A stretch of 64,000 nucleotides of DNA, from positions 1 to 64,000 of the forward strand of contig JBMNHG010000003.1 of the NCBI GenBank assembly GCA_050950285.1. Direction: 5' to 3'. The DNA is from Kiritimatiellia bacterium. GTDB lineage: Bacteria > Verrucomicrobiota > Kiritimatiellia > RFP12 > JBMNHG01. The notes under the pieces are model-generated. The model was not told the origin of the DNA. It saw only the letters and a list, made by a program, of their open reading frames with translations, and did not search any database. The translations under genes were made by a program, and so were the position numbers. Numbering within the stretch: position 1 is the first letter of the stretch; every line of letters begins with the position of its first letter. Below are positions 5,761 to 52,161 of the stretch, piece after piece.

Positions 5761-5862
5761 CAATCCTTAGTTGTCGAATGTCGAGACGTGACCCTGAAGC
5801 CACGAAACTTTCTTCAGGGGTATGCCGTTAGATGACACACCCTCTTTTATACACTGGTCGGC

Positions 5863-7236
5863 ATGGTGGATCAAGTCTATCGTCCGCGCCGACCCAAGGC
5901 ATCGCCCCTGTGGCAATGCCTCCAAGAGCATTTCGACCGGTTTCTGGACGCCTACGAGGAACGGTACCAGCCGCGCTACGGCTTCCTGCGCCCCATCATC
6001 CCGGAGGTGGTCAATAAGTTCCTCGACTGCGGCGACCTTGAACGCGGGTTCGCCCGCGTGCGCTGCGACGACTGCAAGCACGAGTACCTACTGGCGTTCT
6101 CCTGCAAGGGGCGCTGGTTCTGCCCGTCATGCCACCAGAAGAAAGTCCAACTCTTCGGCGCGCTGCTGTCCGAGACGATCCTGTTCCCGGTCCCGCACCG
6201 GCATTTCACCTTCGGAATCCCCAAGATGCTGCGCCCGTACTTCCGCTTCGACCGCGACCTGCTCAAGGACCTGTGCCGCCTGGCGCACGAGTGCCTGCTC
6301 GAATACCTGCGCGCCACCCTCGACCTGCCCGAGGGGCTGCCCGGCATCGTCATGGCGATCCACACCTTCGGCGAGTACCTGGACTTCCATCCCCACCTCC
6401 ACGCCTTGGTCGCCGACGGCCTCTTCGCCCGCTCGGGGTTGTTCTACTGCCTGCCCAATGTGAGCATCGAGCCGCTGGAGGAGATGTTCCGGGCGCGGGT
6501 CATCACGTTTCTGGTGGACAAGGGCCTGTTGCCGGTGGAACGGGCCAACATGCTGCGCGGCTGGGTGCATTCCGGGTTCAACGTGCATCGGAGCCGGCGG
6601 GTACTGCCCGACGAGCGCGGGGACATCGAGCGGCTGGCCCAGTACATCATCCGCAACCCCTTCGCCGTCGAAAAGATGCAGGTCACGGAGCCCAACCGCG
6701 CCAATCCGGACGGAGCGGTTATCTACCGTTCCGGCCTCAATCCGAAGATTCAGCGCAACTTCGAGGTCTTCAGTCCGTGCGACTTCATAGCGGCCATCAC
6801 CCAGCACATCCCGGATAAGAGCTTCCAGCTCGTCCGGTATTACGGCTGGTACAGCAACAAGATGCGCGGCCAGCGCGACAAACACGCCGCCGAAGAGGCC
6901 GCAGCCGCGGGCCGGGCCGTGCAGATCATCGATGTCTCCGAACACAAACCTCGCCATATCCCCTCGGCCAAGTGGCGGGAACTCATCAAGAAGGTCTGGG
7001 AAGCCGATCCGCTCTTGTGCCCGAAATGCCGGAAAGAGATGCGCATCGTTTCTCTCATCAACGAGCGCGACGTGATCGAGCGCATCCTGCGCCACATGGG
7101 CCTCTGGGAGCAGGGCGTGCGGGTCTTGCCGGCAAGGGCACCGCCTGAGGTTGCCGAATGGGTCATCGAGCCTTGCTACGATGACCCATTCCCGGACTAT
7201 GACACCGAGCCGGTCATGATGTACGCGAATGGCTGA
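5863..7236 (+). CDS. IS91-family (Y2, HUH) transposase
   Basis: Zn domain CGD..GF..VRC..C..SCKGRWFCPSC, HFTFGIP, HTFG..LDFHPHLH (HUH), LAQYIIR, LVRYYGWYS. Confidence 0.95.
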   Translation: MVDQVYRPRRPKASPLWQCLQEHFDRFLDAYEERYQPRYGFLRPIIPEVVNKFLDCGDLERGFARVRCDDCKHEYLLAFSCKGRWFCPSCHQKKVQLFGALLSETILFPVPHRHFTFGIPKMLRPYFRFDRDLLKDLCRLAHECLLEYLRATLDLPEGLPGIVMAIHTFGEYLDFHPHLHALVADGLFARSGLFYCLPNVSIEPLEEMFRARVITFLVDKGLLPVERANMLRGWVHSGFNVHRSRRVLPDERGDIERLAQYIIRNPFAVEKMQVTEPNRANPDGAVIYRSGLNPKIQRNFEVFSPCDFIAAITQHIPDKSFQLVRYYGWYSNKMRGQRDKHAAEEAAAAGRAVQIIDVSEHKPRHIPSAKWRELIKKVWEADPLLCPKCRKEMRIVSLINERDVIERILRHMGLWEQGVRVLPARAPPEVAEWVIEPCYDDPFPDYDTEPVMMYANG

Positions 7237-7360
7237 GCCCTCGCGACAGGTGCGGTGCGCCTCCAGACGGTGCCGAACTCGCCTTGTCGGGCCGTTTTAC
7301 GGTCACTCGGACTTTTTGCCCGTGGTTTGACTGGCGTTCGAATCGCGTTTGACGTCGGAC

Positions 7361-7390
7361 TTGACATCACCAGCCCGATCCTGCTACATT
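7361..7390 (+). promoter_or_regulatory. Outward-facing sigma70-like promoter inside the IS right end (also at ~10976 and ~18972)
   Basis: TTGACA-N18-TACATT, conserved in all three copies and pointing at the downstream cargo. Confidence 0.5.
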
Positions 7391-7425
7391 TCCACCATGA
7401 AAGCGCTCATTCAGACCGGTTCTAG

Positions 7426-7455
7426 CCTGTCTGCGTGCGGACACGCACAGGCAGG
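7426..7455. repeat. Short imperfect palindrome within the IS right end (all three copies)
   Basis: CCTGTCTGCGTGCGGACACGCACAGGCAGG hairpin about 40 bp inside the oriIS-like end. Confidence 0.5.
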
Positions 7456-7562
7456 CGGGCGGGTGTCCGTGCCCCTGAAAAGCGATTTCTTATCAATAAA
7501 ATTTGCTCTTTTTGTGTTATAATATGCTTACAGATAAATAGTAATTTGTAAAGGAGGTATTT

Positions 7563-8477
7563 ATGGGAATAGAACATTCGCAAAATTATTTACATAGTAA
7601 ACAACTTGTAGCGACTTTGTTATCAAAGAGTAATATTTGTAACGACGATATTATAATTGAGATAGGTCCTGGAAAAGGAATTATTACCATTGAACTTGCA
7701 AAAAAAAGCAAGCAAGTTATAGCAATAGAGTTTGATGCGAAATTAGCGAAAACTTTATCTGAAAAGTATAAAGAATCTAAAAAAGTTCAAATAATAGAGA
7801 TGGATTTTTTAAAATATAAAATATCAGTAAAAGAACCATATAAAGTATGTGCAAATATTCCATTTAACATAACTGCTGATATTGTGAAAAAGGTATTTGA
7901 AGCCGATAATCCTCCTGAAGATATATATTTCATAATGCAGTATGAGGCTTTTCTCAGGTATTCTGGACAGCCCTTTTATAACGAAAGTTTGAGGTCTCTT
8001 TTATACAAACCTTGGTTTTCCGCTGAATTGATTTATGAGTTTAAACCATCAGATTTTTATCCTGTGCCAAATGCACGAATATGTTTTGCTCACTTTCAAA
8101 GAAAAACATCTGCTGATGTTGAGGATGCGATAGACTATAGAAATTTTCTGTCATATATATTTTTAGCATCTGGAAATACTTTCAAAGATAAAACAAAAAA
8201 ATTGTTTACTTATGAGCAACAAAAACGCATTTGCAAGTTTTTAAAAATTAAATTAGAGTCAACGCTTACTGAAATCTCATACGATGGATGGCTGTACCTA
8301 TATGATGTTTTTCTTAAATTTGTTTCCAACGAAAAAAAAGCTATTATATTAAATGCTGAACAAGACATGAAAAACAATCAAAACAAGATTCAAAAAAAAC
8401 ATCGAAATCGTAATCATGGTTATTGGAAATTTGAAGCTAAGCGCCAAAAAAAATTAAAATTTGAAAATGGAAAATAA
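7563..8477 (+). CDS. erm: 23S rRNA adenine-N6 methyltransferase, Erm family (Erm(42)-like)
   Basis: SQNYL, IEIGPGKGIIT, IAIEFD, ANIPFNITA, MQYE, DFYPVP motifs. AAGGAGG RBS and TGnTATAAT upstream. Very AT-rich. Confidence 0.88.
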   Translation: MGIEHSQNYLHSKQLVATLLSKSNICNDDIIIEIGPGKGIITIELAKKSKQVIAIEFDAKLAKTLSEKYKESKKVQIIEMDFLKYKISVKEPYKVCANIPFNITADIVKKVFEADNPPEDIYFIMQYEAFLRYSGQPFYNESLRSLLYKPWFSAELIYEFKPSDFYPVPNARICFAHFQRKTSADVEDAIDYRNFLSYIFLASGNTFKDKTKKLFTYEQQKRICKFLKIKLESTLTEISYDGWLYLYDVFLKFVSNEKKAIILNAEQDMKNNQNKIQKKHRNRNHGYWKFEAKRQKKLKFENGK

Positions 8478-8624
8478 GAATTTTATCAGTAGCTATATTT
8501 CAAATTTCTATATTATTAGCAATAGTGTAAACAAAAAAGTTGACAGAAAAAAGTAATAAGTAAATCATAAATGTTGTATTATGTTAATCTGTTGCCATTA
8601 ACTTTTAAAAAATGCGAGCAGATC

Positions 8625-8938
8625 ATGAAAGAGATTGGGATTATGGATAAGTGTTTTAAGACAGGCGGGTTTTGCTACAGCTCTGATGGGCGCGGTTTGT
8701 GGAGATATGCGCTGCTTGCTGTCGCCTTGCTGGTGTTGTCGCTCGGTTTCTGGGGCTGCGCTTCCAGACAGAAAGTAGCGCGAAGTGAGATGCCAAATAT
8801 TATTTTGGTGCTGTGCGACAATCTGGGTTACGGCGATTTGAAGGTTTACAACCCCAAAGCCAAGCAGAGCACGCCGCGTATATCTCAACTGGCATCGGAA
8901 GGTATGGTCTTTCATCATGCCTATGCCGCAGCCGCAGC
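8625..8938 (+). pseudogene. 5' fragment of a lipoprotein sulfatase
   Basis: Signal peptide with FWGC lipobox, PNIILVLCDNLGYGDL, TPRISQLASEGMVF..AY; cut just before the CxPxR motif. Confidence 0.85.
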
Positions 8939-9412
8939 GATGAAGCCCGCGAGCTGCGCCCACACATCGGGGTCGATCCGCACCCGGTCCTCGGGCAGGA
9001 CGCCGACGTGCTCGCTGAGCCAGTCGGGCTCGATGGTGATTTCGCCCTCCAGCGACTCGGCGATCTTGTCCAGTACCGAGCGCATGTCCAGGTGCAGGGG
9101 CGTGCCCTCGTAGTGGGCCAGCAGCTTGCGGGCGAGACCGAAGCTGAAGGCCTCCTTGCGGCTGATTCTCACCGGCGACAGCGTGTAGGTCTCGTCGGTC
9201 AGCCGGAACCCGTGCCGGGCGTCGTCGTAGGCCAGCGGGGCGCGTTCCTCATCTCGCAGGAAGTCCAGGTCCCGCGCCACCGTGCGGCGCGAGATCTCGA
9301 ACTCGTTCATGAAGTCGCTGCTGTTGGGCAGAGAGCCGGAATCGGCGCCCTCGCGCACCATCTGGACCATGCGCCGGATGCGGTAGTATTGCGGTCTGGA
9401 ACCCGTCTTCAT
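8921..9412 (-). pseudogene. Truncated HTH-WYL transcriptional regulator, divergent from the transposase
   Basis: EFEISRRTVARDLDFLRD..APLAYD...GF is a typical wHTH of WYL/PafBC-type regulators; the sequence ends before the WYL domain. Confidence 0.8.
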
Positions 9413-9477
9413 TTTTCTCAAACTTTCTTCAGGGGTATGCCGTTAGATGACACACCCTCTTTTATACACTGGTCGGC

Positions 9478-10851
9478 ATGGTGGATCAAGTCTATCGTCC
9501 GCGCCGACCCAAGGCATCGCCCCTGTGGCAATGCCTCCAAGAGCATTTCGACCGGTTTCTGGACGCCTACGAGGAGCGGTACCAATCGCGGTTCGGCTTC
9601 CTGCGCCCCATCATCCCGGAGGTGGTCAATAAGTTCCTCGACTGCGGCGACCTTGAACGCGGGTTCGCCCGCGTGCGCTGCGACGACTGCAAGCACGAGT
9701 ACCTACTGGCGTTCTCCTGCAAGGGGCGCTGGTTCTGCCCGTCATGCCACCAGAAGAAAGTCCAACTTTTCGGCGCGCTGCTGTCCGAGACGATCCTGTT
9801 CCCGGTCCCGCACCGGCATTTCACCTTCGGAATCCCCAAGATGCTGCGCCCGTACTTCCGCTTCGACCGCGACCTGCTCAAGGACCTGTGCCGCCTGGCG
9901 CACGAGTGCCTGCTCGAATACCTGCGCGACACCCTCGACCTGCCCGAGGGGCTGCCCGGCATCGTCATGGCGATCCACACCTTCGGCGAGTACCTCGATT
10001 TTCACCCCCATCTGCACGCCCTGGTTGCCGACGGTCTCTTCGTGCGCTCAGGATTGTTTTACGTCTTGCCCGATGTCAGTCTCAAACCGCTGGAAGAGTT
10101 GTTCCGTGCGAGAATCATCACATTTCTGGTCGAGAAGGGTCTGTTGCCAGCCGCCCGCGCCAAGATGTTGCGCAGTTGGGTGCATTCCGGGTTCAATGTC
10201 CATCGCAGTCGCCGCGTGTTGCCCGACGAGCGCGAGGACCTTGAGCGCCTGGCCCAGTACATCATCAGGAACCCCTTTGCTGTCGAGAAGATGCAGGTTG
10301 CGGAGCCCAACCGCGCCAACCCGGACGGATCGGTTATCTACCGTTCCGGTCTCAACCCCAAGATTCAGCGCAACTTCGAGGTCTTCAGTCCGTGCGACTT
10401 CATAGCGGCCATCACCCAGCACATCCCGGACAAGAGTTTCCAGCTCGTTCGCTACTACGGCTGGTATTCAAATAAGATGCGCGGCCAGCGCGACAAACAC
10501 GCCGCCGAAGAGGCCGCAGCCGCGGGCCGGGCCGTGCAGATCATCGATGTCTCCGAACACAAACCTCGCCGTATCCCCTCGGCCAAGTGGCGGGAACTCA
10601 TCAAGAAGGTCTGGGAAGCCGATCCGCTCTTGTGCCCGAAATGCCGGAAAGAGATGCGCATCGTTTCTCTCATCAACGAGCGCGACGTGATCGAGCGCAT
10701 CCTGCGCCACATGGGCCTCTGGGAGCAGGGCGTGCGGGTCTTGCCGGCAAGGGCACCGCCTGAGGTTGCCGAATGGGTCATCGAGCCTTGCTACGATGAC
10801 CCATTCCCGGACTACGATACCGAACCGGTCATGATGTACGCGAACGGCTGA
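9478..10851 (+). CDS. IS91-family transposase, copy 2
   Basis: 457 aa with the same motifs as copy 1; divergent central patch. Confidence 0.95.
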   Translation: MVDQVYRPRRPKASPLWQCLQEHFDRFLDAYEERYQSRFGFLRPIIPEVVNKFLDCGDLERGFARVRCDDCKHEYLLAFSCKGRWFCPSCHQKKVQLFGALLSETILFPVPHRHFTFGIPKMLRPYFRFDRDLLKDLCRLAHECLLEYLRDTLDLPEGLPGIVMAIHTFGEYLDFHPHLHALVADGLFVRSGLFYVLPDVSLKPLEELFRARIITFLVEKGLLPAARAKMLRSWVHSGFNVHRSRRVLPDEREDLERLAQYIIRNPFAVEKMQVAEPNRANPDGSVIYRSGLNPKIQRNFEVFSPCDFIAAITQHIPDKSFQLVRYYGWYSNKMRGQRDKHAAEEAAAAGRAVQIIDVSEHKPRRIPSAKWRELIKKVWEADPLLCPKCRKEMRIVSLINERDVIERILRHMGLWEQGVRVLPARAPPEVAEWVIEPCYDDPFPDYDTEPVMMYANG

Positions 10852-11128
10852 TCCATCGCGACGGGTGCGGTGCGCCTCCAGACGGTGCCGAACTCGCCTT
10901 GTCGGGCCGTTTTACGGTCACTCGGACTTTTTGCCCGTGGTTTGACTGGCGTTCGAATCGCGTTTGACGTCGGACTTGACATCACCAGCCCGATCCTGCT
11001 ACATTTCCACCATGAAAGCGCTCATTCAGACCGGTTCTAGCCTGTCTGCGTGCGGACACGCACAGGCAGGCGGGCGGGTGCCCGTGCCCCTGAAAAGCGA
11101 TTTCTTATCAATCGATCAAATCTATGGG

Positions 11129-12136
11129 ATGCGAGTGAGAAAAAATAATTTACAGGCTGCAAATGATGTGGAGTTCAATATTCGGTCACAAGAGCAACAA
11201 CAGCTCCTTGAAATTCTGTTGCTTGACAGAACAAAGTCATCGATAAACGACCCCCAAAACATCATTTGGGCTAATGACAACTACAAAGAATATGATGCTG
11301 TTTCCTACGCAGCAAAGGCTCAAATAAGACCCGATCTGATTACCGGCAAGCAAAGTTCGTTGATTATGCCGCGGGCCCTGAAAGCGGCTGCTCTGCAGAA
11401 AAAGCGCACCAAAACAAAAGCCGAGGTTTTCACCCCGACCTGGATAGTCAAAAAACAAATTGATGCGGTGGAAAGTGATTACAAAGCCGATGACCTGCAA
11501 ACATACGTCAGCCGGAAATGGCTCGAAATTACCTGCGGCGAAGCCCCGTATATGGCGACCCGCTACGATATGGAAACAGGTGAACTTGTCCCGCTTGCCG
11601 AGCGTTGCGGTTTTGTTGACCGGAAACTTGCCCGTATCAATGCCGAAGTCAAAGACAAAGCCGAGTGGCAGTGCTTGGTTGAACTGGCTTACCAATCAAG
11701 CTACGGTTTTGAATGGAACGGCGATTCGCTCCTGCTCGCCCGGGAGAACCTTCTTTACACATATCGTGACTATTACATCAAAAAGTGGAGAAAGCAGCCG
11801 ATGCCGATCCTGTTAAATGTAATCGCCAAAATCATCAGCTACAATGTTTTTCAGATGGACGGCTTGACATATACGATCCCGCTTTCCCAAACAAAAGTAA
11901 AAAAGAAAATCGTCCAAACATTTTTTCCCTTAAACGGCACGAGTGAACCGGAAACCGATGAGTGGGAAATAACACAGGGGATGGGTGTCAAGATCATGAA
12001 CTGGAATGCACTTGAAATGGAGCTATTTGAGACCATTGCCAAACCCAACGCCAACTTTGCGGTTCGCGAGAACGCTCTTGCTCCAGCCCAGTGTTCCGAT
12101 CCCTTGTCAGAATTTGGTGGCGAACGTCCACGTTAG
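11129..12136 (+). CDS. Restriction-modification methyltransferase-like subunit
   Basis: LLEILLLDRT..NIIWA, KAEVFTPTW, LEITCGEAPY, SYGFEWNGDSLLLARENL, NVFQMDGL. Likely ATG at 11129; the ORF extends upstream into IS sequence. Confidence 0.75.
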   Translation: MRVRKNNLQAANDVEFNIRSQEQQQLLEILLLDRTKSSINDPQNIIWANDNYKEYDAVSYAAKAQIRPDLITGKQSSLIMPRALKAAALQKKRTKTKAEVFTPTWIVKKQIDAVESDYKADDLQTYVSRKWLEITCGEAPYMATRYDMETGELVPLAERCGFVDRKLARINAEVKDKAEWQCLVELAYQSSYGFEWNGDSLLLARENLLYTYRDYYIKKWRKQPMPILLNVIAKIISYNVFQMDGLTYTIPLSQTKVKKKIVQTFFPLNGTSEPETDEWEITQGMGVKIMNWNALEMELFETIAKPNANFAVRENALAPAQCSDPLSEFGGERPR

Positions 12137-12166
12137 CCGCAGTCGGTCAAAACAAAAGGATACTTC

Positions 12167-15100
12167 ATGAGCAACAATACGGTCATCAAAACCACCCGAA
12201 CTGTCTATCCGCAAATCTACGCTTACGTTCTCCCTGAATATGCCCCTAAAGAAGGATGGATAAAAATCGGCTATACCGAACGTCGCAATGTCGATGACCG
12301 TATCCGCGAGCAGACGCGCACCGCCGGAATCCGTTATGACAAGCTCTGGTCGGAACCCGCCAAGTTTCATAACTCTGACGAGTGGTTTTTCGACAAGCAG
12401 TTGCACTCTTACTTGCATAAATTCAAGCAAGTGAAGCGACTCCCAAACACCGAATGGTTTTACTATGACGGAAAACCTGCGCAGGCGCGCGCTGACTTCG
12501 ACGATTTTCGGTGCAGGGATGTAAGGCAGGTGGGCAAGGAACTCGATTACAAGCTGCGTGCCGAGCAGGAAAAAGCTGTCCAGATGACCATGGAGTACGC
12601 CACATCGCACAAGGGTGGCGAGTTCCTCTGGAACGCCAAGCCCCGTTTCGGCAAAACCCTCACCGCCTATGACCTGGCCCGCCGCCTAGAGGCGACAAAT
12701 GTCCTGATCGTCACAAACCGCCCGGCAATCGCCAACTCGTGGTTTGATGACTTTGAAACCTTTATCGCGTGGCAGACTGATTACCGCTTTGTCTCCACAA
12801 CCGACTCCCTGAAGGAGCGCCCTGTTCTCACGCGTGAAGATTTTCTTGGAGTTCTCGGCACACCGGGCGGGAAAGACGCCAAGTGCATTACCTTTATCTC
12901 GCTGCAAGATTTGAAAGGTGCGATCTGTTTCGGCGGGTTCATCAACAAACTCCAATGGGTTAAAGAATTGAACTGGGATCTGCTCGTTATCGACGAAGCG
13001 CACGAAGGCGTGGACACCTTCAAGACAGATGTGGCTTTCAAAAACATTACCCGAAAATTCACCCTGCACTTGTCGGGTACGCCCTTTAAGGCGGTGGCCA
13101 GCGGCAAATTTTCGGAAAAGCAAATTTTCAACTGGACCTACGCCGACGAGCAAGACGCCAAAGCCGCCTGGCCGGAAGATAGCGAAGAGAACAACCCCTA
13201 TGAAGGACTGCCGCGGCTGAATCTTTTTTCGTACCAGATGAGCCGGATGATCACCGACGAGGTCAACAAAGGCGCTGAAATCGACGGCAAAGACATCGAT
13301 TTCGCCTTTGATTTGAATGAGTTTTTCGCCACAGGCGATAACGGCAAGTTTATTCACGAGGCCGAGGTCAGTAAATGGCTAGATACTCTGACGCGCAATG
13401 AGAAATACCCCTTTTCAACCGATCAACTCAGATCTGAATTGAAGCATACGTTCTGGTTACTGAACCGTGTGGCGAGTGCGAAGGCTCTGGAAAAACTGCT
13501 AAGAGAACATCGCGTCTTTCAACACTACGAGGTTGTTCTGGCTGCCGGCGACGGCCGAAGCGATGAAGACGATCCGGCTGCCACAGAAAAAGCACTCAAC
13601 AGAGTGCGGAAGGCCATAAAAGAGAACGAAAGAACGATCACCCTCTCCGTAGGCCAACTGACTACCGGGGTCACCGTGCCGGAGTGGAGCGGCGTCATGA
13701 TGCTCTCCAACGTCAAGTCGCCCAGCCTCTACATGCAGGCGGCATTCCGCGCGCAAAACCAATGGAGCTACGCTGCCGGCGGCGAAAAGCAGCGTAAGGA
13801 GAATGCCTACGTCTTTGACTTCGCGCCGGAGCGCACCCTCATTATCTACGACGAGTTTGCCAACAACCTGAACCGCAGAACCGCGGGCGGAGGCGGCACG
13901 ACCGATGACCGCGAAAAGAACATCGGATTGTTGCTCAACTTTTTTCCCGTGATCGCCGAAGACAGCGACGGCAAAATGATCGAGCTGGATGTCAGGCAGG
14001 TGCTGACCATCCCCAAGACCATTAAAGCGCAGGAGGTTGTCAAACGCGGCTTCATGTCCAATCTGCTGTTTCAGAATATCTCCGGCATATTCGCTTCAGC
14101 CGAGGCGCGTGAAATCCTTGAGCAGCTCAACCCGGTCGCGCCGGGAAAAGTAACGCCGGGCCAGAAAAACAGCTCCATCGATACGCAAGGGGTGGAGGTG
14201 GATGATGCTGGCAGCGCGGTTGTCGCCCCAGCGATTGTCCTGGCAACTACAGATGCCCGATTTGGCGCAAAGCTCTATGGTGATCTTGCCACCGCCGCTA
14301 CTGAAGCAGCCGAAGAGAAATCCGCAAGCCTGACAAGCACGATTGCCGCCTCTTTTACTCACGGCGTTATGGAGACGGCCAAAGAGATCGCCAAAGAAAA
14401 CGCTGTAACTGTTGCCCAGGCTGAACAGGTTGTGAAGCAAAACGCGAATGTCCTGGCCCGCGAGGTTGAAATCGTACAGAGGCAAGCTGAAATAAAGAAA
14501 GCTGAGGCGGAGGTTGAATTGAAAAAAGAAGTCGCGGCTGCCGCAAACAATGTAGACGCGATTGTCCAAGCCAAAGCAAGATATGAGGAAACGCAGCGGG
14601 AAATCGACAGGACATTTAAAAAAGACCTTGCCGACAAGGTTTCGGAAAAAACAACGGAACTGATACAAAAAACGACAGGGGAGATACTCCAGAAAGCCGA
14701 GGAAAAGAAGAAAACTTCGGTTGAGGATGATATTCGTTCCCGTCTGCGCGGCTTCGCGCGCACGATTCCGTCGTTCCTTATGGCTTACGGCGATTTAGAG
14801 ACAACCCTGGCAACTTTCGATGACAACATCAAAGACGCGGTTTTCAAGGAAGTCACGGGCATCACCCTCGACCAGTTCAGAGCGTTGCGCGACACCTACA
14901 ACTTCTTCGACCCGGTTGTTTTCGACGAATCGGTTCAGGAGTTTCTACGCAAGAAAGCGGAGCTGGCCAATTACTTCGACGACAGCCAGGAAGAGGACAT
15001 CTTCGATTACATCCCGCCGCAGAAGACCAACCAGATTTTCACGCCCAAATGGGTCGTGAAGATGATGATCGACAAACTGGAGGAAGAAAACCCCGGTTTG

Positions 15101-16414
15101 TTTGCTGACAAAACCAAAACCTTTGCCGATTTGTACGTCAAGTCAGGCCTCTACCTGACCGAAATCGTCGCACGCCTTTACAAAGGGCTTGAAGACACCA
15201 TTCCAGACAAAAAGGCGCGGCTCAAGCACATCCTTGAAAACCAGGTGCACGGCTTCGCACCAAGCGAGATCATCCACGCGATCGCAAAAAACTTTGTTTA
15301 CGGCAATTTTGCCGATATTGACAATTCAAACCTGCAGTGCCGCGACCTGACCGAAGTGGCCAAAAACGGAGGATGTTTAGATATGAAATTTGATGTTGTG
15401 GTGGGCAACCCGCCGTATCAGGAGGAAACTAAAGACACCAGCGACTTACCGGTTTACCCCCTGTTTTATAACTTGGCGGAAAAAGTGGCTGCGAAATACT
15501 GCTTAATTTCACCGGCTAGGTTCCTGTTTAATGCCGGGAAAACTCCTGCCGTCTGGAATAATAAAATGCTGAATGACGAACACATTAAGGTGTTGTTTCA
15601 TGAGCAAATTTCCAGCAAGGTTTTTACGAATACCGACATTCCTGGTGGAGTTGCTGTTTTGTATCGTGATTCGCAAGCCAACTTCGGGAAAATCGGTACA
15701 TACACCATTTTTGACGATCTGAATACGATTGTAAAAAAGGTCGAAAATAATGCTGATTTTGAGAGTATTGTGCCTATCATTTATTTGCAGGAAAAACTTA
15801 ATCTCGACGCGCTGTATACGGATTTTCCAGAAGCGAAAAGTAAGGTGGGTAGTCAAGGCAGGGAAAAGCGTTTAACTACTTCGATCTTTGACACTTTAGA
15901 CATTTTCTCTGACAGACCATCAGGTTCTGCTGATGTTCGTGTTTTAGGATTGATTAGAAATCAAAGACTTTACAAATATATAAATCGAAAATACTTGGAA
16001 AGTCATCCAAATTTCGAAAAATATAAAGTTGTATTGCCGAAATCAAATGGTTCTGGCGCGATAGGTGAAGTTTTTAGTACACCCCTTGTGGGGGAACCTC
16101 TTGTGGGGGGACCCCTTGTGGGTCACACTCAGAGTTTTATTTCTTTTGGAGCATTCGACAACGAAAGCGAGGCGCAGAATTGCCTCAAATACATCAAATC
16201 AAAGTTCGCCCGGACACTGCTCGGCGTGCTGAAAGTAACGCAAGATAACAATCCCGAAACTTGGTCAAAAGTTCCCATGCAGGACTTCACGCCGCAGAGT
16301 GACATTGACTGGACGAAGTCCATTCCCGAAATTGACCGTCAGCTTTACGCCAAATACGGGCTTGACGAGCAGGAGATTGCCTTCATCGAAGAGAAGGTAA
16401 AGGCAATGGAGTAA
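12167..16414 (+). CDS. Fused GIY-YIG/T5orf172 nuclease - SF2 helicase - Eco57I-type adenine methyltransferase
   Basis: IYAY..WIKIGYT..EWF; AKPRFGKT; IDEAH; LSGTP; QIFTP; FDVVVGNPPY. Confidence 0.88.
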   Translation: MSNNTVIKTTRTVYPQIYAYVLPEYAPKEGWIKIGYTERRNVDDRIREQTRTAGIRYDKLWSEPAKFHNSDEWFFDKQLHSYLHKFKQVKRLPNTEWFYYDGKPAQARADFDDFRCRDVRQVGKELDYKLRAEQEKAVQMTMEYATSHKGGEFLWNAKPRFGKTLTAYDLARRLEATNVLIVTNRPAIANSWFDDFETFIAWQTDYRFVSTTDSLKERPVLTREDFLGVLGTPGGKDAKCITFISLQDLKGAICFGGFINKLQWVKELNWDLLVIDEAHEGVDTFKTDVAFKNITRKFTLHLSGTPFKAVASGKFSEKQIFNWTYADEQDAKAAWPEDSEENNPYEGLPRLNLFSYQMSRMITDEVNKGAEIDGKDIDFAFDLNEFFATGDNGKFIHEAEVSKWLDTLTRNEKYPFSTDQLRSELKHTFWLLNRVASAKALEKLLREHRVFQHYEVVLAAGDGRSDEDDPAATEKALNRVRKAIKENERTITLSVGQLTTGVTVPEWSGVMMLSNVKSPSLYMQAAFRAQNQWSYAAGGEKQRKENAYVFDFAPERTLIIYDEFANNLNRRTAGGGGTTDDREKNIGLLLNFFPVIAEDSDGKMIELDVRQVLTIPKTIKAQEVVKRGFMSNLLFQNISGIFASAEAREILEQLNPVAPGKVTPGQKNSSIDTQGVEVDDAGSAVVAPAIVLATTDARFGAKLYGDLATAATEAAEEKSASLTSTIAASFTHGVMETAKEIAKENAVTVAQAEQVVKQNANVLAREVEIVQRQAEIKKAEAEVELKKEVAAAANNVDAIVQAKARYEETQREIDRTFKKDLADKVSEKTTELIQKTTGEILQKAEEKKKTSVEDDIRSRLRGFARTIPSFLMAYGDLETTLATFDDNIKDAVFKEVTGITLDQFRALRDTYNFFDPVVFDESVQEFLRKKAELANYFDDSQEEDIFDYIPPQKTNQIFTPKWVVKMMIDKLEEENPGLFADKTKTFADLYVKSGLYLTEIVARLYKGLEDTIPDKKARLKHILENQVHGFAPSEIIHAIAKNFVYGNFADIDNSNLQCRDLTEVAKNGGCLDMKFDVVVGNPPYQEETKDTSDLPVYPLFYNLAEKVAAKYCLISPARFLFNAGKTPAVWNNKMLNDEHIKVLFHEQISSKVFTNTDIPGGVAVLYRDSQANFGKIGTYTIFDDLNTIVKKVENNADFESIVPIIYLQEKLNLDALYTDFPEAKSKVGSQGREKRLTTSIFDTLDIFSDRPSGSADVRVLGLIRNQRLYKYINRKYLESHPNFEKYKVVLPKSNGSGAIGEVFSTPLVGEPLVGGPLVGHTQSFISFGAFDNESEAQNCLKYIKSKFARTLLGVLKVTQDNNPETWSKVPMQDFTPQSDIDWTKSIPEIDRQLYAKYGLDEQEIAFIEEKVKAME
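16082..16122 (+). repeat. 15-bp in-frame tandem repeat (PLVGE-PLVGG-PLVG)
   Basis: CCYCTTGTGGG repeated three times at a 15-nt period in the C-terminal specificity region. Confidence 0.8.
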
Positions 16415-16620
16415 TAGCACCCTGAGTGAAAAATAAAGCCTGGCACTAAATCCGCCATGATTTTTAAGCACTTGTATATAATTTGCAATGACCTTTCTTC
16501 TTCGCCGGACAAGCTGGTCTCTGATGAAAATCACACTTGATTTGTTGAAAAACGCAATCAGCGAATTTGTTGTATTATGTTAATCTGTTGCCATTAACTT
16601 TTAAAAAATGCGAGCAGATC

Positions 16621-16934
16621 ATGAAAGAGATTGGGATTATGGATAAGTGTTTTAAGACAGGCGGGTTTTGCTACAGCTCTGATGGGCGCGGTTTGTGGAG
16701 ATATGCGCTGCTTGCTGTCGCCTTGCTGGTGTTGTCGCTCGGTTTCTGGGGCTGCGCTTCCAGACAGAAAGTAGCGCGAAGTGAGATGCCAAATATTATT
16801 TTGGTGCTGTGCGACAATCTGGGTTACGGCGATTTGAAGGTTTACAACCCCAAAGCCAAGCAGAGCACGCCGCGTATATCTCAACTGGCATCGGAAGGTA
16901 TGGTCTTTCATCATGCCTATGCCGCAGCCGCAGC
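16621..16934 (+). pseudogene. Sulfatase 5' fragment (duplicate)
   Basis: Same as 8625-8938. Confidence 0.85.
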
Positions 16935-17408
16935 GATGAAGCCCGCGAGCTGCGCCCACACATCGGGGTCGATCCGCACCCGGTCCTCGGGCAGGACGCC
17001 GACGTGCTCGCTGAGCCAGTCGGGCTCGATGGTGATTTCGCCCTCCAGCGACTCGGCGATCTTGTCCAGTACCGAGCGCATGTCCAGGTGCAGGGGCGTG
17101 CCCTCGTAGTGGGCCAGCAGCTTGCGGGCGAGACCGAAGCTGAAGGCCTCCTTGCGGCTGATTCTCACCGGCGACAGCGTGTAGGTCTCGTCGGTCAGCC
17201 GGAACCCGTGCCGGGCGTCGTCGTAGGCCAGCGGGGCGCGTTCCTCATCTCGCAGGAAGTCCAGGTCCCGCGCCACCGTGCGGCGCGAGATCTCGAACTC
17301 GTTCATGAAGTCCGTGCTGTTGGGCAGAGAGCCGGAATCGGCGCCCTCGCGCACCATCTGGACCATGCGCCGGATGCGATAGTACTGCGGTCTGGAACCC
17401 GTCTTCAT
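16917..17408 (-). pseudogene. Truncated HTH-WYL regulator (duplicate)
   Basis: Same as 8921-9412 with a few SNPs (NSS to NST). Confidence 0.8.
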
Positions 17409-17473
17409 TTTTCTCAAACTTTCTTCAGGGGTATGCCGTTAGATGACACACCCTCTTTTATACACTGGTCGGC

Positions 17474-18847
17474 ATGGTGGATCAAGTCTATCGTCCGCGC
17501 CGACCCAAGGCATCGCCCCTGTGGCAATGCCTCCAAGAGCATTTCGACCGGTTTCTGGACGCCTACGAGGAGCGGTACCAATCGCGGTTCGGCTTCCTGC
17601 GCCCCATCATCCCGGAGGTGGTCAATAAGTTCCTCGACTGCGGCGACCTTGAACGCGGGTTCGCCCGCGTGCGCTGCGACGACTGCAAGCACGAGTACCT
17701 GCTGGCGTTCTCCTGCAAGGGGCGCTGGTTCTGCCCGTCATGCCACCAGAAGAAAGTCCAACTCTTCGGCGCGCTGCTGTCCGAGACGATCCTGTTCCCG
17801 GTCCCGCACCGGCATTTCACCTTCGGAATCCCCAAGATGCTGCGCCCGTACTTCCGCTTCGACCGCGACCTGCTCAAGGACCTGTGCCGCCTGGCGCACG
17901 AGTGCCTGCTCGAATACCTGCGCGACACCCTCGACCTGCCCGAGGGGCTGCCCGGCATCGTCATGGCGATCCACACCTTCGGCGAGTACCTGGACTTCCA
18001 CCCCCACCTCCACGCCCTGGTCGCCGACGGCCTCTTCGCGCGCTCGGGGTTGTTCTACTGCCTGCCCAATGTGAGTCTCAAGCCGCTGGAGGAGATGTTC
18101 CGGGCGCGGGTCATCACGTTTCTGGTGGACAAGGGCCTGTTGCCGGCGGCACGGGCCAACATGCTGCGCGGCTGGGTGCATTCCGGGTTCAACGTGCATC
18201 GGAGCCGGCGCGTGCTGCCCGACGAGCGCGAGGACATCGAGCGGCTGGCCCAGTACATCATCCGCAACCCCTTCGCCGTCGAGAAGATGCAGGTCACGGA
18301 GCCCAACCGCGCCAACCCGGACGGATCGGTTATCTACCGTTCCGGCCTCAACCCCAAGATTCAGCGCAACTTCGAGGTCTTCAGTCCGTGCGACTTCATA
18401 GCGGCCATCACCCAGCACATCCCGGACAAGAGCTTCCAGCTCGTCCGGTATTACGGCTGGTACAGCAACAAGATGCGCGGCCAGCGCGACAAACACGCCG
18501 CCGAAGAGGCCGCAGCCGCGGGCCGGGCCGTGCAGATCATCGATGTCTCCGAACACAAACCTCGCCGTATCCCCTCGGCCAAGTGGCGGGAACTCATCAA
18601 GAAGGTCTGGGAAGCCGATCCGCTCTTGTGCCCGAAATGCCGGAAAGAGATGCGCATCGTTTCTCTCATCAACGAGCGCGACGTGATCGAGCGCATCCTG
18701 CGCCACATGGGCCTCTGGGAGCAGGGCGTGCGGGTCTTGCCGGCAAGGGCACCGCCTGAGGTTGCCGAATGGGTCATCGAGCCTTGCTACGATGACCCAT
18801 TCCCGGACTACGATACCGAACCGGTCATGATGTACGCGAACGGCTGA
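17474..18847 (+). CDS. IS91-family transposase, copy 3
   Basis: 457 aa; HUH and Zn motifs intact. Confidence 0.95.
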   Translation: MVDQVYRPRRPKASPLWQCLQEHFDRFLDAYEERYQSRFGFLRPIIPEVVNKFLDCGDLERGFARVRCDDCKHEYLLAFSCKGRWFCPSCHQKKVQLFGALLSETILFPVPHRHFTFGIPKMLRPYFRFDRDLLKDLCRLAHECLLEYLRDTLDLPEGLPGIVMAIHTFGEYLDFHPHLHALVADGLFARSGLFYCLPNVSLKPLEEMFRARVITFLVDKGLLPAARANMLRGWVHSGFNVHRSRRVLPDEREDIERLAQYIIRNPFAVEKMQVTEPNRANPDGSVIYRSGLNPKIQRNFEVFSPCDFIAAITQHIPDKSFQLVRYYGWYSNKMRGQRDKHAAEEAAAAGRAVQIIDVSEHKPRRIPSAKWRELIKKVWEADPLLCPKCRKEMRIVSLINERDVIERILRHMGLWEQGVRVLPARAPPEVAEWVIEPCYDDPFPDYDTEPVMMYANG

Positions 18848-19108
18848 TCCATCGCGACGGGTGCGGTGCGCCTCCAGACGGTGCCGAACTCGCCTTGTCG
18901 GGCCGTTTTACGGTCACTCGGACTTTTTGCCCGTGGTTTGACGGGCGTTCGAATCGCGTTTGACGTCGGACTTGACATCACCAGCCCGATCCTACTACAT
19001 TTCCACCATGAAAGCGCTCATTCAGACCGGTTCTAGCCTGTCTGCGTGCGGACACGCACAGGCAGGCGGGCGGGTGCCCGTGCCCCTGAAAAGCGATTTC
19101 TTATCAAT

Positions 19109-19510
19109 ATCAATAAATGCGCAATATGCGGATGCCCGATCCACCGCGATGGCGACTACGCGAAGCCAACCGTCCGCGGTAGGTCGCACGCGACCCGGCA
19201 TCACCACGTTGCGAAACGCTTTTTCGGTCGCTCCGCTAACCGCCGTGGCACCACCCGAGACGCCATCTTTGCCAAATGCCCGTGGGATGCCGAGTGTACC
19301 ACCTCCACCTTCTGTTACGAGTGTCACGAGGAACTGATTCATAACCCGGTCTTCCTGCCCGAAGACATCCACGGATTTGCAGAGCTCGTCAAAGCCCGTG
19401 GCCTTGATGAGCCAGAGAAAACGGATGAGCGAAGCCGTCTTGCAGGACGCATCAAGTTACTCCATGAAGTCATCAAAACTGGGCTGAAAGAGATGAACAA
19501 AATAACTTGA
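19109..19510 (+). pseudogene. HNH-like Zn-finger protein, 5' end replaced by the IS
   Basis: KCAICG...HHHV...CYECHE pattern begins right at the oriIS junction with no native start codon. Confidence 0.5.
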
Positions 19511-19574
19511 ACCTACTTAAGTACAACTTCCTGAAAAGGTTCAAGTACGCGTTCGGCAAACAGGATGAGATGAT

Positions 19575-19778
19575 ATGAGAAAACGTTCAGTGGGACGCTG
19601 CCCAAAGTGCGGATCAACCGATACCATCCGCATCGTCTACGGAATGCCAACGGAAGAAGACTTTGCCGCGGCCGAAAAAGGTGAACTATCGATTGGAGGG
19701 TGTTGCCAAGAGATTGATGCCCCTGACGCTAAATGCAAGGGTTGTGGTCACACATGGCTGAAGGGTGGCTCGAATTAA
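19575..19778 (+). CDS. Small Zn-ribbon protein
   Basis: CPKCGS..IVYGMP..GGCC...CKGCGHTW. Confidence 0.75.
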   Translation: MRKRSVGRCPKCGSTDTIRIVYGMPTEEDFAAAEKGELSIGGCCQEIDAPDAKCKGCGHTWLKGGSN

Positions 19779-19823
19779 GCAAATATATCTGCTGGCGCTG
19801 CCTGCCATGCTGCAGAGGGAAAC

Positions 19824-20186
19824 ATGAATGACTCCCTGATGACGAAAACCGTATCGGACCGGTTGCGCGACGCCGGGGCCGTCGTGGTCGGATTCGCCGA
19901 CCTGGCACCGTTGGACGAAACAACCCGGCAGGGCTTCCCCCGGGCCGTCTCGTTCGCGATGCCGCTCAGCCCCTCCATCGTAGCGGGGATCGCCGAGGGG
20001 CCAACCGAGGCCTACGCCGGGGAATACAGCCGCCTCAATTCCCTGCTGACGCAAACGGCACAGGATATCGCCGCCTTCATCGAGACTCGGGGCTGGCGGG
20101 CGCAGGCACGCCCTGCCACCGGCGACTGGTCCACCGCCACCTTGCGGGCGCCGTTTCAGCACAAGACCGCCGCCACGCTGGCCGGC
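19824..20186 (+). pseudogene. Epoxyqueuosine reductase-like (QueG/4Fe-4S family) 5' fragment
   Basis: VVGFADL, RAVSFAM.L, EYSRLNSLL, FQHKTAATLAG; then fused to unrelated DNA, Fe-S cluster motifs lost. Confidence 0.7.
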
Positions 20187-20294
20187 CGCGATCTGGTCGG
20201 CCAGCGCGTGCTGCTCGATGCTGCCCGAGTCGCCGGTCGCCTTCTTCGGCCCGGCGGCGTTCTCGCTGATCTGGGTGTCGAGGTTCTCTGCCAC
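20185..20294 (-). pseudogene. 5' fragment of a small prophage-cluster gene
   Basis: GTG-AENLDTQISENAAGPKKATGDSGSIEQHALADQIAA, a type of gene normally found downstream of GpA terminase (recalled). Confidence 0.55.
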
Positions 20295-20482
20295 GGTGTT
20301 CTCTCGCTGGCGGCCGACCATCGGCCGTCTACGGGTTATATACGCGGCGAGAGAGCAAAGTGGCGGGAGAAAAGTGAAGATTTCTGCGGCGGGTTCTACA
20401 GGTAGAACATGCGGACAAAAAACCGTGCGCCGATCTTGTCGACGCACGGTTCAGAATGATTGACGGCTCGTGCGTCAGCGCA

Positions 20483-21091
20483 TCAACGAGCGTATGTCTC
20501 GATGGCGCGGCGACCGTCTTTGATCTCGAGAACACCGAACCCGATATGCGCGTCCGGCAAGTTCACATGCGTCATGGCACGATACCATCGCGGCACCTTG
20601 CCCCTGCGCCCCATGAAGATGGTGTCATCGGGAAGGTTACCGATGAGCGAAAACGCGTCTTCGACCCGGCTCGCACTTTGACCCGCCACGCCCAGGCAGG
20701 CACTCTTGACGGAATCCAGCCCCTCCTGAAGTCGAGCGAGCGACTCCTGGATTTCATACACAGCAAATGGATTCCAAATCATGCACGTCGGCGGCCCCAT
20801 GTGCCCGCTGATAGTGAAATCCGCCCCCGTCCTGGCTCCGATGAGTTCCACGAATGGTTCCTTCCCAGGGCTGACATGCGAGACGAAGAGGCGCGGCCCG
20901 GGCCAATCGCCAGCGTTGTCGACGGTTCGCACAAGATCGGTGTACTGGGAAAGCGTGGTCCAGACCTTCCCGCCTCCACCGGCGATAGGACTCTGCATCA
21001 TCTTTGATCCTGGCAGTAGGTTTCCGCCGAGCCCATAGACAAGCACAGAACCGAGTTTCCCGTGGGTGTCGCTTATCAGCAAAAGTCGCAT
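20483..21091 (-). pseudogene. Metallophosphoesterase with an internal deletion
   Basis: LLISDTHG is joined directly to VYGLGG; the GD and GNHE motifs are missing; VSHVSP and ISGHMG are retained. Confidence 0.7.
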
Positions 21092-45213: not shown

Positions 45214-45695
45214 GAATGGGCTCCGATTTGAACCGCAGATGACGCAGATTCACGCAGATAGTGATTTACGAAACGCTTATGCTCAAGACGCGGGGTGGCG
45301 AAGTTGAACAGAAGCGCCCGATCGAGGTCCGTGGCTTTGAGATAGTGCAGCACTTGCGCGTCTTCGATTTCCGTTAGCTTCTTGATGGCCTTCAGCTCTA
45401 CAATGATGCCGTCATAGCAGACGAAATCAGCCCTATAGGGCGTGGACAGTTGGCATCCCTTGTACAAGACCGGGATGGGTTGCTCACGCTGATACGGAAT
45501 GCCGCGCATGACAAACTCTCGTTCAAGAGCGTCCTGATAAACAGCTTCAAGAAAGCCGTTACCGAGGACACTGTGAACTTCCATTGCAGCGCCAATGATG
45601 GCAAACGTCTCCGGGTCGCGGGAAACCACGGATGGCGCAGAGTCTTGGTGAACCGCAGATGGCGCAGATTGTCGCAGAAGATGGTCAGAACTCAT
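45210..45695 (-). CDS. GxxExxY protein (PD-(D/E)XK-like)
   Basis: IIGAAMEVHSVLGNGFLEAVYQ, YRADF, IIVELKA, QVLHYLKAT. Confidence 0.92.
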   Translation of the reverse strand: MSSDHLLRQSAPSAVHQDSAPSVVSRDPETFAIIGAAMEVHSVLGNGFLEAVYQDALEREFVMRGIPYQREQPIPVLYKGCQLSTPYRADFVCYDGIIVELKAIKKLTEIEDAQVLHYLKATDLDRALLFNFATPRLEHKRFVNHYLRESASSAVQIGAHS

Positions 45696-45803
45696 GATGA
45701 TGTGTCCTCGGCAAAATCAAACAGCATAGGCCCTAAATCCTTGCCTTTCCCAAACTTTCTAACCCGCTTTCCCAATCTGCGTTCATCTGCGTCATCTGCG
45801 GTT
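45231..45803. repeat. AACCGCAGAT 9-nt-periodic arms flanking the GxxExxY gene
   Basis: Arms at 45231-45259, 45624-45642 and 45651-45678; inverted arm at 45775-45803. Confidence 0.8.
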
Positions 45804-47503: not shown

Positions 47504-47520
47504 ATCAAATCATCTCCTTG

Positions 47521-47599
47521 AACCGCCAAGACGCCAAGGTCGCCAAGAACAGGATCCTTTGCATCTTCTCGCTTGGTGCCTTTGGCATTCTTGGTGGTT
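47521..47599. repeat. Intergenic AACC...GGTT palindromic element
   Basis: AACCGCCAAG-ACGCCAAG-GTCGCCAAG ... CTTGGTGC-CTTTGGCATT-CTTGGTGGTT. Confidence 0.8.
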
Positions 47600-47601
47600 A
47601 T

Positions 47602-52151: not shown

Positions 52152-52161
52152 GCGGTGGTCT

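Follow-up and report, generated by a model that had tools for sequence, protein, structure and literature searches.

Transposition of IS91, a rolling-circle insertion sequence (IS), starts at oriIS and ends at terIS, with a circle of the bottom strand as the functional intermediate, according to the part of the published account drawn on here (PMC13181058). The same part reports that 1–14% of events are one-ended and carry along DNA from beyond terIS, upstream of the transposase gene tnpA (PMC13181058). In excerpts of two articles, family members are described as having palindromes at oriIS, one palindrome with a cleavage tetranucleotide at terIS, and neither inverted repeats nor target-site duplications (PMC13181058; PMC13393415). 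In ISCR28 two oriIS form a 'sandwich', and the gene enclosed by them is captured (as reported in the cited part of PMC12772301), and ISCR2 had, to the knowledge of Lund et al. (2022) as expressed in the cited portion of their article, not been identified outside Proteobacteria (PMC8914350). Here we analyse a window of 64,000 nucleotides (nt), positions 1 to 64,000 of contig JBMNHG010000003.1 from a Kiritimatiellia bacterium (assembly GCA_050950285.1), in which a preliminary description had recognized a tandem IS91/ISCR array carrying an erm gene and restriction-modification (RM) genes. We consider it likely that this region consists of three ISCR-like copies arranged head to tail, each a terIS-less derivative of an IS91-family rolling-circle element of 2.76 kb. 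The parent element is at home in Verrucomicrobiota, Kiritimatiellia and Lentisphaerae. ISCR-type capture itself is known; what is new here is the IS lineage, the host group, a documented donor of the erm gene, and RM genes as cargo.

Results

Three diverged IS copies in direct orientation

A repeat finder placed three direct copies of the IS, called A, B and C below, at starts 5805, 9420 and 17416, with spacings of 3615 and 7996 bp. Their features are as follows (ORF, open reading frame; aa, amino acids).

5805..7498, plus strand: IS copy A, an IS91-family core cut 58 bp upstream of the tnpA start, without WYL gene and without terIS
5863..7236, plus strand: tnpA-A, 457 aa, Zn-binding domain and Y2 HUH transposase, HPHLH at 176, RYYGWYSNKMRG
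7399..7498, plus strand: oriIS of copy A, subterminal hairpins and the conserved terminal motif ...GCGATTTCTTATCAAT
9420..11112, plus strand: core of IS copy B, tnpA-B at 9478-10851, oriIS end at 11112
17416..19108, plus strand: core of IS copy C, tnpA-C at 17474-18847, oriIS end at 19108

Each copy encodes an intact transposase in the same direction, as the preliminary description had stated. The ORFs at 5863-7236, 9478-10851 and 17474-18847 are stop-free and 457 aa long, and all three products match the Pfam profiles Zn_Tnp_IS91 (approximately 4-7e-19) and Y2_Tnp (5e-22 to 9e-23). HPHLH at 176 and RYYGWYSN (YxxxY) at 326 supply the HUH motif and the two tyrosines in all three. The NCBIfam IS91 model gave 178.8 bits (cutoff 125), which, with the conserved oriIS and the absence of terIS described below, upholds the earlier IS91/ISCR-like assignment. 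Codon differences are mostly synonymous (synonymous versus non-synonymous: 58 versus 20 for A-B, 19 versus 10 for A-C, and 45 versus 10 for B-C).

Comparison of the region with itself by BLAST gave 94.5% identity over 1693 bp between copy A (5805-7497) and copy B (9420-11112), and 97.9% over 1694 bp between copy A (5805-7498) and copy C (17416-19109). With identities of 94.5–97.9%, the three copies are not fresh duplicates. The preliminary description had named a collapsed-repeat artefact as the outcome that would undo its reading; copies that differ from each other at 35 to 93 positions speak against such an artefact. Its account of the repeats needs correction in that the repeat unit is more than the 1.69-kb core: copies B and C, and only these, share a longer repeat (8572-11112 and 16568-19108, 2541 bp, 97.3% identity), which adds a further 848 bp upstream of the core. 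The left end of this 2541-bp module is identical beside the erm gene (8572) and beside the RM genes (16568).

No fourth copy of the IS was found in the 4.05-Mb genome. One other contig of the genome opens inside a related WYL gene (C10:1-549; C-terminal two thirds, 89% identical to that of locus L001), with no tnpA assembled beside it; this piece is either a remnant or a fourth, unassembled copy.

A conserved oriIS end with varied flanks

All three copies finish in ...GCGATTTCTTATCAAT and then pass into unrelated sequence. Identical ends followed by cargo of differing base composition had been pointed out before, and the present figures agree: G+C content is 28% over the erm segment, about 39–57% over the RM part, 56–57% after copy C and 58–65% inside the IS, in a genome of about 66%. 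Terminal inverted repeats and target duplications had likewise been reported as lacking, and none were seen at the junctions; no inverted repeat joins the two ends of a copy. A short imperfect match of 11–13 nt, between CTTTCTTCAGGGG on the left and the complement of CCCCTGAAAAG on the right, was noted by eye.

The oriIS DNA folds with −25.7 kcal/mol (z −4.6, 0 of 200 shuffles), and the end recurs in relatives. Under a stricter pattern, 51 matches yielded 49 distinct pairs of end and flank, which share ...GCRAxxTCYTATCNNN. The same terminal core is present in L155, L156 and L158, and the terminal motif occurs in ISPps1 and in a proteobacterial ISCR beside rmtE2 (presumably ISCR20). Two plasmids with the same rmtE2-type ISCR, which in one of them lies beside rmtE2, diverge directly after ...AGTTCCTATCAGT; the ISPps1 terminus reads ...ATTTCCTATCCGT. 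As judged from these termini, the oriIS end motif is common to proteobacterial ISCR and IS91 elements. The oriIS end was found in 39 of 400 sampled phylum-mate genomes. A match to the consensus of a sigma-70-like promoter, directed outward, lies at 7361-7390.

Near-identical copies of the IS (at least 94.5%) occur with at least seven different right flanks, namely those of window copies A, B and C, two in L001, and those in L018 and L099/L100, which speaks for recent mobility. The element is not a numbered or curated ISCR: the NCBIfam model ISCR_clade_Ia gave 115 bits (cutoff 925). It had been suggested to be unnamed, and the closest plasmid-borne transposase is indeed only 42.8% identical, with 31.9% for that of the rmtE2-linked ISCR. 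Searches of 72,556 plasmids by megablast with the IS and with the erm-to-IS stretch returned no match; matches were obtained at the protein level only.

Self-repeats were observed at some ends. In five of the 49 distinct oriIS ends (among them L008, L031, L046 and L065) the flank opens with a repeat of the last 5–6 letters of the IS itself, and in the window the end of copy C is repeated at the start of its flank (19103-19114, ATCAAT followed by ATCAAT). Shuffling of flanks among ends reached five self-repeats in 2 of 2000 trials. In L033 a second oriIS-like end lies in the flank 4 nt further on. Judging from these flanks, the element may tend to land next to sequences similar to its own end.

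The full-length parent and the loss of terIS

One genome per prokaryote species was scanned for the transposase, giving 77 loci with 49–99% amino acid identity. Almost all hosts are metagenome-assembled genomes (MAGs) of Verrucomicrobiota, Kiritimatiellia and Lentisphaerae. In at least 15 of the loci, homology to copies B and C extends upstream past 9420 as far as about 8927-8960, beyond which the relatives continue with a WYL gene. The upstream stretch of the relatives is a divergent regulator gene of 327–329 aa, with a WYL domain in L001 and WYL and WCX domains in L100. A full WYL gene precedes 15 of the 43 tnpA 5' ends that have at least 1150 bp of upstream sequence, a partial gene precedes 3, and 25 have none. 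The full element thus delineated measures about 2.76 kb and consists of a terIS palindrome, the divergent HTH-WYL-WCX regulator gene, tnpA, and an oriIS ending in ...TTCYTATCANN. Its left end is sharp in L001, L003, L050 and L100, where the flanks differ up to (C/G)AAC and are followed by common sequence; the terIS of the relatives folds into a hairpin of about 60 nt (z −5.2, 0 of 200 shuffles).

In the window terIS is absent from all three copies, and the left end of copy A does not fold (z 0.35). Copy A starts just past the WYL start codon; it keeps the intergenic palindrome and has no regulator. The corresponding parts of the other copies are as follows.

8572..8945, plus strand: sulfatase gene fragment, upstream region and about 125 codons, fused to the truncated WYL gene
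8921..9421, minus strand: truncated WYL-regulator gene, 166-aa N-terminal DNA-binding part, divergent from tnpA-B
16568..17415, no single strand: second sulfatase fragment and truncated WYL gene (WYL ORF 16917-17417, minus strand), 99.5% identical to 8572-9419
5818-5842, 9433-9457 and 17429-17453, no strand assigned: intergenic palindrome

Copies B and C retain about 475–490 bp of the WYL gene, fused to the sulfatase at about 8927-8945. The sulfatase fragment matches NCBIfam sulfatases and positions 1–47 of the 301 of the Pfam Sulfatase profile, and this sulfatase gene does not occur elsewhere in the genome. The truncated WYL product matches the PADLOC WYL profile (1.8e-13, positions 20–107 of 229) and does not have the complete set of helix-turn-helix, WYL and WCX domains. 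Copies B and C form a single lineage that lost terIS through a deletion, by which half of the WYL gene came to be fused with the start of the sulfatase gene.

The position −58 from tnpA, at which copy A begins, was considered as an alternative terIS and ruled out, since the left junctions of WYL-less relatives scatter between −46 and −109 from tnpA (second copy in L001, L007, L009, L012, L020 and L043) and the stretch does not fold. The palindrome between the WYL and tnpA start codons (GGGTRTGCCGTTAGATGACACACCC) is present in nearly all relatives, even in WYL-less copies, and is likely the operator of the WYL regulator.

A two-copy arrangement was also seen in L001, a Kiritimatiellae MAG. Here (7777-8586) a dihydropteroate synthase (DHPS) gene and a gene resembling a type IV secretion system (T4SS) pilin gene come after an IS copy of 98% identity, and a second, WYL-less IS copy lies beyond them, forming another 'sandwich'. 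The DHPS gene was rejected as a sul gene: the product is a generic DHPS and falls below the cutoffs for Sul1-4 (186 with the Sul4 model, cutoff 600).

The erm segment and its donor

The cargo between copy A and module B is an erm segment.

7499..8571, plus strand: captured erm segment, 28% G+C; erm ORF at 7563-8477, 304 aa

By eye, the erm ORF has its own TGnTATAAT-like −10 box and ribosome-binding site. Its product matches Pfam RrnaAD (2e-43) and is 67.1% identical in amino acid sequence to Erm(53) of a Psychrobacter plasmid and 47% identical to Erm(42). It stays below every curated Erm cutoff, by 2 bits for the broad NCBIfam Erm model (209.7, cutoff 212) and by far more for the Erm(42) model (268.8, cutoff 600). 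We regard it as a putative macrolide-resistance 23S rRNA methyltransferase. The predicted family UGF20 shows 66.7–67.5% identity to Erm(53), occurs in Firmicutes and Proteobacteria and, according to the cited part of the source, was untested by Lund et al. (2022; PMC8914350); from its similarity to Erm(53) we infer that the window erm belongs with this family. A literature search on erm 53 together with macrolide found nothing. The exact erm protein is encoded on at least 1000 contigs, and its 90% cluster has 1693 members. It was found in 0 of 400 sampled phylum-mate genomes, a sample that does not imply absence from the phylum.

The erm gene lies in AT-rich DNA in 77 metagenome loci. Window positions 7498-8572 are 99.9% identical at the nucleotide level to L096/L097, in which the sequence continues at both borders. 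The gene order in L097 is two large serine recombinases, erm, glyoxalase, PadR regulator, a Tet(M/W/O/S)-family gene and ANT(6). Contigs of two metagenome runs (X3 and X4) continue into the same AT-rich sequence exactly before 7498, and those of X4 also behind 8572. Since the sequence runs on at both borders in L096/L097, X3 and X4, the segment 7499-8571 was cut from such a context, which demonstrates the import of erm from a multiresistance region that is AT-rich and of Firmicutes type. L099/L100 contain a full-length IS (terIS, WYL, tnpA, oriIS) whose junction with the same donor sequence lies 132 bp further upstream; erm is truncated there at 8455. This is a second, independent joint between this IS family and erm. 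CTTG was considered as a target motif: it precedes the capture border in L097, but L096 has CGTG, and a single site is no evidence.

Further features of the erm loci were observed. In AT-rich contigs from gut and wastewater (L078-L154), erm forms a discrete module of about 1.04 kb (window 7537-8572), which starts with ...TAGTAATTTGTAAAGGAGG and ends with ...ATAAAT followed by TACAA(T/G). Sixty loci showed 38 combinations of 30 distinct left flanks with 21 distinct right flanks. A TATAAT-like box closes many of the left flanks, and in some right flanks the next gene begins with the same 5' motif. The module looks like a promoterless cassette shuffled by a site-specific mechanism. In L099/L100 the truncated erm is followed (L100, 5894-7152) by GC-rich DNA in which words resembling GTTGTCTTTAT recur and a tyrosine recombinase gene begins; this may be another kind of recombination site beside the same erm segment.

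The RM cargo and the gene after copy C

The second cargo and the gene that follows copy C are as follows.

11113..16567, plus strand: RM cargo with two ORFs, 11129-12136 and 12167-16414
19109..19510, plus strand: Cys/His-rich gene, first approximately three codons including the start lost to the IS end

The first RM ORF (335 aa) begins 16 nt after the IS end and matches PADLOC MTase_II (2.5e-73); it has no NPPY motif and no Pfam domain. The second (1415 aa) combines T5orf172 (8e-5), a ResIII helicase with GKT and DEAH motifs (3e-13), an N6 methylase with NPPY (Eco57I 2e-15, N6_Mtase 2e-6) and a C-terminal part, and matches PADLOC REase_MTase_IIG (4e-41). It has the single-chain layout of Type IIG/ISP enzymes and is a predicted restriction-modification enzyme. 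The exact 1415-aa protein occurs on six contigs, and its cluster has nine members, mostly on contigs of 5.9–6.8 kb, as would be expected if the RM unit were bounded by repeats elsewhere too.

The gene at 19109-19510 had been labelled HNH', a label that we could not substantiate: no HNH profile was found in Pfam at E ≤ 1, where CTU2 alone appeared below threshold, or in PHROGs at E ≤ 0.01, and the invariant Cys/His/Asn pattern of its family is HNH-like by eye only. The gene has 400 relatives at E ≤ 0.001; the 120 listed are 131–202 aa long, mostly 131–160 aa, with no Pfam domain. Alignment with relatives showed that M-x-E alone is missing from the window gene.

The array sits in a stretch resembling a defence island (607-2913, 21102-22634 and 42502-53208). 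Neighbours of this kind are a PD-T4-6-like Ser/Thr kinase with TPR repeats; a Fic protein (PADLOC PDC-S24, 2.6e-188); a type III-like set of ResIII, PD-(D/E)XK and methylase genes; a Schlafen/AlbA-Fic_C protein; a pair of SNF2 helicase and Mrr; and a DUF4062 protein. A search of 200 class-mates with 19109-21000 found no uninterrupted (empty) site, only two short partial matches.

Occurrence in metagenome runs

The stretch 7300-11300 (erm, extension and IS) was followed in metagenome runs. Of the 24 runs listed, 19 contained half or more of the sampled words, a count that does not imply linkage of the parts. Any part of the stretch was present in 21 runs from 13 studies of digester, bioreactor, manure, wastewater and biogas metagenomes. 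In X4 the depth of erm is about 63, and the RM part and the flanks are near zero.

Joints in the contigs were inspected as candidate circle junctions. Those from 11116 to 17038 (side 28) and from 7497 to 7569 (side 22) are too short to be trusted as circle evidence. In X8, a joint leading from 16558 back to 8655 simply represents a variant of the RM-to-extension junction and gives no signal of circles or copy number. Parts not covered in X3, X4 and X8 are uninformative.

Discussion

A capture model and its alternatives

The anatomy of the array, its precise ends, the loss of terIS, the foreign erm, the second IS-erm joint and the near-identical copies in many flanks are observations. From these we infer the direction of capture, termination from oriIS to oriIS, the way in which units were inserted, and any present activity. 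As in IS91, strand displacement would proceed from oriIS back through tnpA. A terIS-less copy would read on into the DNA upstream and would stop either where it meets a surrogate site or on reaching the next oriIS. In an array, the neighbouring oriIS on the left would offer the same nick site, and the displaced unit would then extend from oriIS to oriIS. Two such units have observed boundaries and may be movable: 7499-11112, comprising erm and module B, and 11113-19108, comprising the RM genes and module C. Each would have formed elsewhere and then been placed exactly at the oriIS end of a resident copy, either because the transposase acted on that end or because IS copies recombined with each other. 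The interpretation in the preliminary description thus holds in part. The ISCR-like identity and the exact oriIS-to-oriIS units stand; it had overlooked the divergence and mosaicism of the copies, the WYL and sulfatase extension, and the loss of terIS.

A bolder version of the model is tentative, and we are inclined to doubt it. A resident oriIS might be the preferred landing site: having nicked it, the HUH transposase would link this nick to an incoming unit bounded by oriIS, much as relaxases act between two oriT. The terIS-less copies might thereby stack captured genes in ordered arrays, integron-like without an integrase, and the DriD/PafBC-like WYL regulator of the intact parent might couple the process to single-stranded DNA or DNA damage. 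If so, bacteria of the Planctomycetes-Verrucomicrobia-Chlamydiae (PVC) group in digesters and wastewater would own a platform that captures Firmicutes resistance genes and defence genes.

Several observations weigh against capture by the three terIS-less derivatives, and they are considered here together with the alternatives that they favour. The surrogate left ends at 7499, 8572 and 11113 have no obvious common motif. By eye, no consensus target tetranucleotide was found in the first four letters of the distinct right flanks beside oriIS. The left junctions of WYL-less relatives look like varied independent deletions, not like one defined alternative end. The exact joint of copy A to erm (7498/7499) was present in 0 of the 77 erm loci and was not among the contig pieces listed. 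Circle junctions, loss of units and amplification were not observed in the four metagenome runs, whose assembled contigs are unable to reveal them. The copies are, moreover, mosaics of blocks that match different relatives: copy B has a divergent patch at IS positions 577–1054, with 77–86% identity to every compared copy in alignment columns 601–900 and 99–100% to copy C elsewhere, and copy A has its own patch in columns 1351–1500. Such block-wise identity indicates that homologous recombination is frequent in this IS family, and the array could therefore have arisen without recent action of the transposase. It also means that recombination and insertion targeted to oriIS could not be told apart by single-nucleotide differences, the test that was tried.

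The mosaic identity leads directly to a passive array, in which the IS copies no longer transpose and the structure was built and kept by homologous recombination only (circles re-inserted, as for IS26) or was carried in as a block by another mobile element. The absence of terIS from all copies and the truncation or absence of the WYL regulator agree with this. We nevertheless regard it as unlikely: the exact joints between oriIS and cargo must stem from transposase at some time, all three tnpA genes are intact with mostly synonymous differences, near-identical copies occur in at least seven different flanks, and there are two independent IS-erm joints.

Also counting against capture, and in favour of an assembly chimera, are the position of the array just 5.8 kb from the contig start and the uneven depths in X1 (erm 17–20, RM approximately 8.5, left flank 2.9, right flank 4.9–7.6). 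Pieces of different community genomes (erm, RM and host flanks) would then have been stitched together through the 1.7–2.5 kb repeats, and both an erm segment of 28% G+C in a 66% G+C genome and IS-family words 10–90 times deeper than the flanks would fit. Such stitching is improbable here, as the 35–93 differing positions anchor each joint with copy-specific letters. X1 contigs bridge the joints as well, one of 5897 nt spanning 11086-16982 (end of B, RM genes and left part of C) with three mismatches and another spanning 19085-20186 from the end of C into the flank, with the limit that X1 may be the source sample and hence not independent. The genome, with a completeness of 99.35% and a contamination of 0.16%, comprises 12 contigs, the largest of 1.08 Mb, and L099/L100 provide the IS-erm linkage independently.

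That the cargo instead belongs to the left-hand copy, the IS mobilizing DNA downstream of oriIS in units A plus erm, B plus RM and C plus the HNH-like gene, is very improbable. In its favour, erm in L099/L100 follows the IS with no second copy visible downstream within 1.26 kb, a promoter-like site points outward near the IS end, and the first RM ORF lies close behind that end. Against it, the bottom-strand circle of IS91 runs from oriIS to terIS and its one-ended events take DNA upstream of tnpA (PMC13181058, in the part cited), and the same upstream extension of B and C is joined to two cargos, which fits cargo, extension and IS as one unit.

Implications

The reading of the region as a head-to-tail array of terIS-less derivatives has wider consequences. 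Nearly all descriptions of ISCR-type capture to date concern Proteobacteria; here an IS91 lineage unrelated to theirs has lost its stop signal in the same way. A widespread, putative erm gene was picked up from a Firmicutes-type multiresistance region, apparently twice. This suggests a concrete route for resistance genes across phylum borders in engineered anaerobic habitats, and the same vehicle carries a restriction system. The full-length element and its truncated derivatives form a useful natural pair in which to examine how an IS becomes a gene collector once terIS is lost. Literature searches on WYL together with IS91 returned nothing about this pairing, as judged by titles or the beginnings of abstracts, and those on Kiritimatiellae, Lentisphaerae and related terms together with ISCR returned nothing that mentions 'ISCR' among the papers listed.

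Comparison with known systems

The window erm shares the RrnaAD fold with Erm(53) and Erm(42) and lies below every allele-specific NCBIfam cutoff. The 1415-aa protein resembles Type ISP and IIG enzymes in joining, on one chain, a nuclease-like N-terminus, a superfamily 2 (SF2) helicase, a gamma-type N6-adenine (N6A) methylase and a C-terminal part. The N-terminal nuclease domain of Type ISP enzymes is Mrr, whereas the window protein has T5orf172 at its N-terminus; it also differs in being paired with the 335-aa PADLOC 'MTase_II' protein, which lacks an NPPY-type motif and a Pfam domain.

With IS91, IS801 and IS1294 the window family shares an oriIS with two subterminal palindromes, and the full-length relatives share a terIS consisting of one palindrome beside a GTTC-like tetranucleotide, read as (C/G)AAC on the tnpA strand. 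One-ended transposition is a route of capture in that group, as proposed here for the window copies. The window copies, unlike those elements, are without terIS. A GTTC/CTTG target lies beside oriIS in the known elements, whereas none is evident by eye in the listed flanks here, and the co-directional orf121 of IS91 contrasts with the divergent WYL regulator of the window family.

The closest parallels are with ISCR elements (ISCR1, ISCR2, the rmtE2-linked ISCR and ISCR28). Like the window element, these have a HUH/Y2 transposase with a Zn-binding N-terminus and a precise hairpin oriIS end, with the terminal motif TTCCTATC(A/C)(G/A)T in L155, L156 and L158. They too lack terIS, inverted repeats and target duplications, and they have varied cargo, including resistance genes, directly after oriIS; this feature was found here in the three window cargos, in the DHPS gene after the IS end in L001 and again with erm in L099/L100. 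Tandem or 'sandwich' structures with two oriIS, as in the window array, are likewise known from ISCR (PMC12772301, in the cited part). The window transposase, however, is at most 31.9% identical in amino acid sequence to that of the rmtE2-linked ISCR and scores 115 against the 925 bits of ISCR_clade_Ia. The hosts are members of the PVC group here and Proteobacteria for ISCR. Finally, the parent of the window element carries a WYL regulator, and the cargo of the window includes a restriction-modification system.

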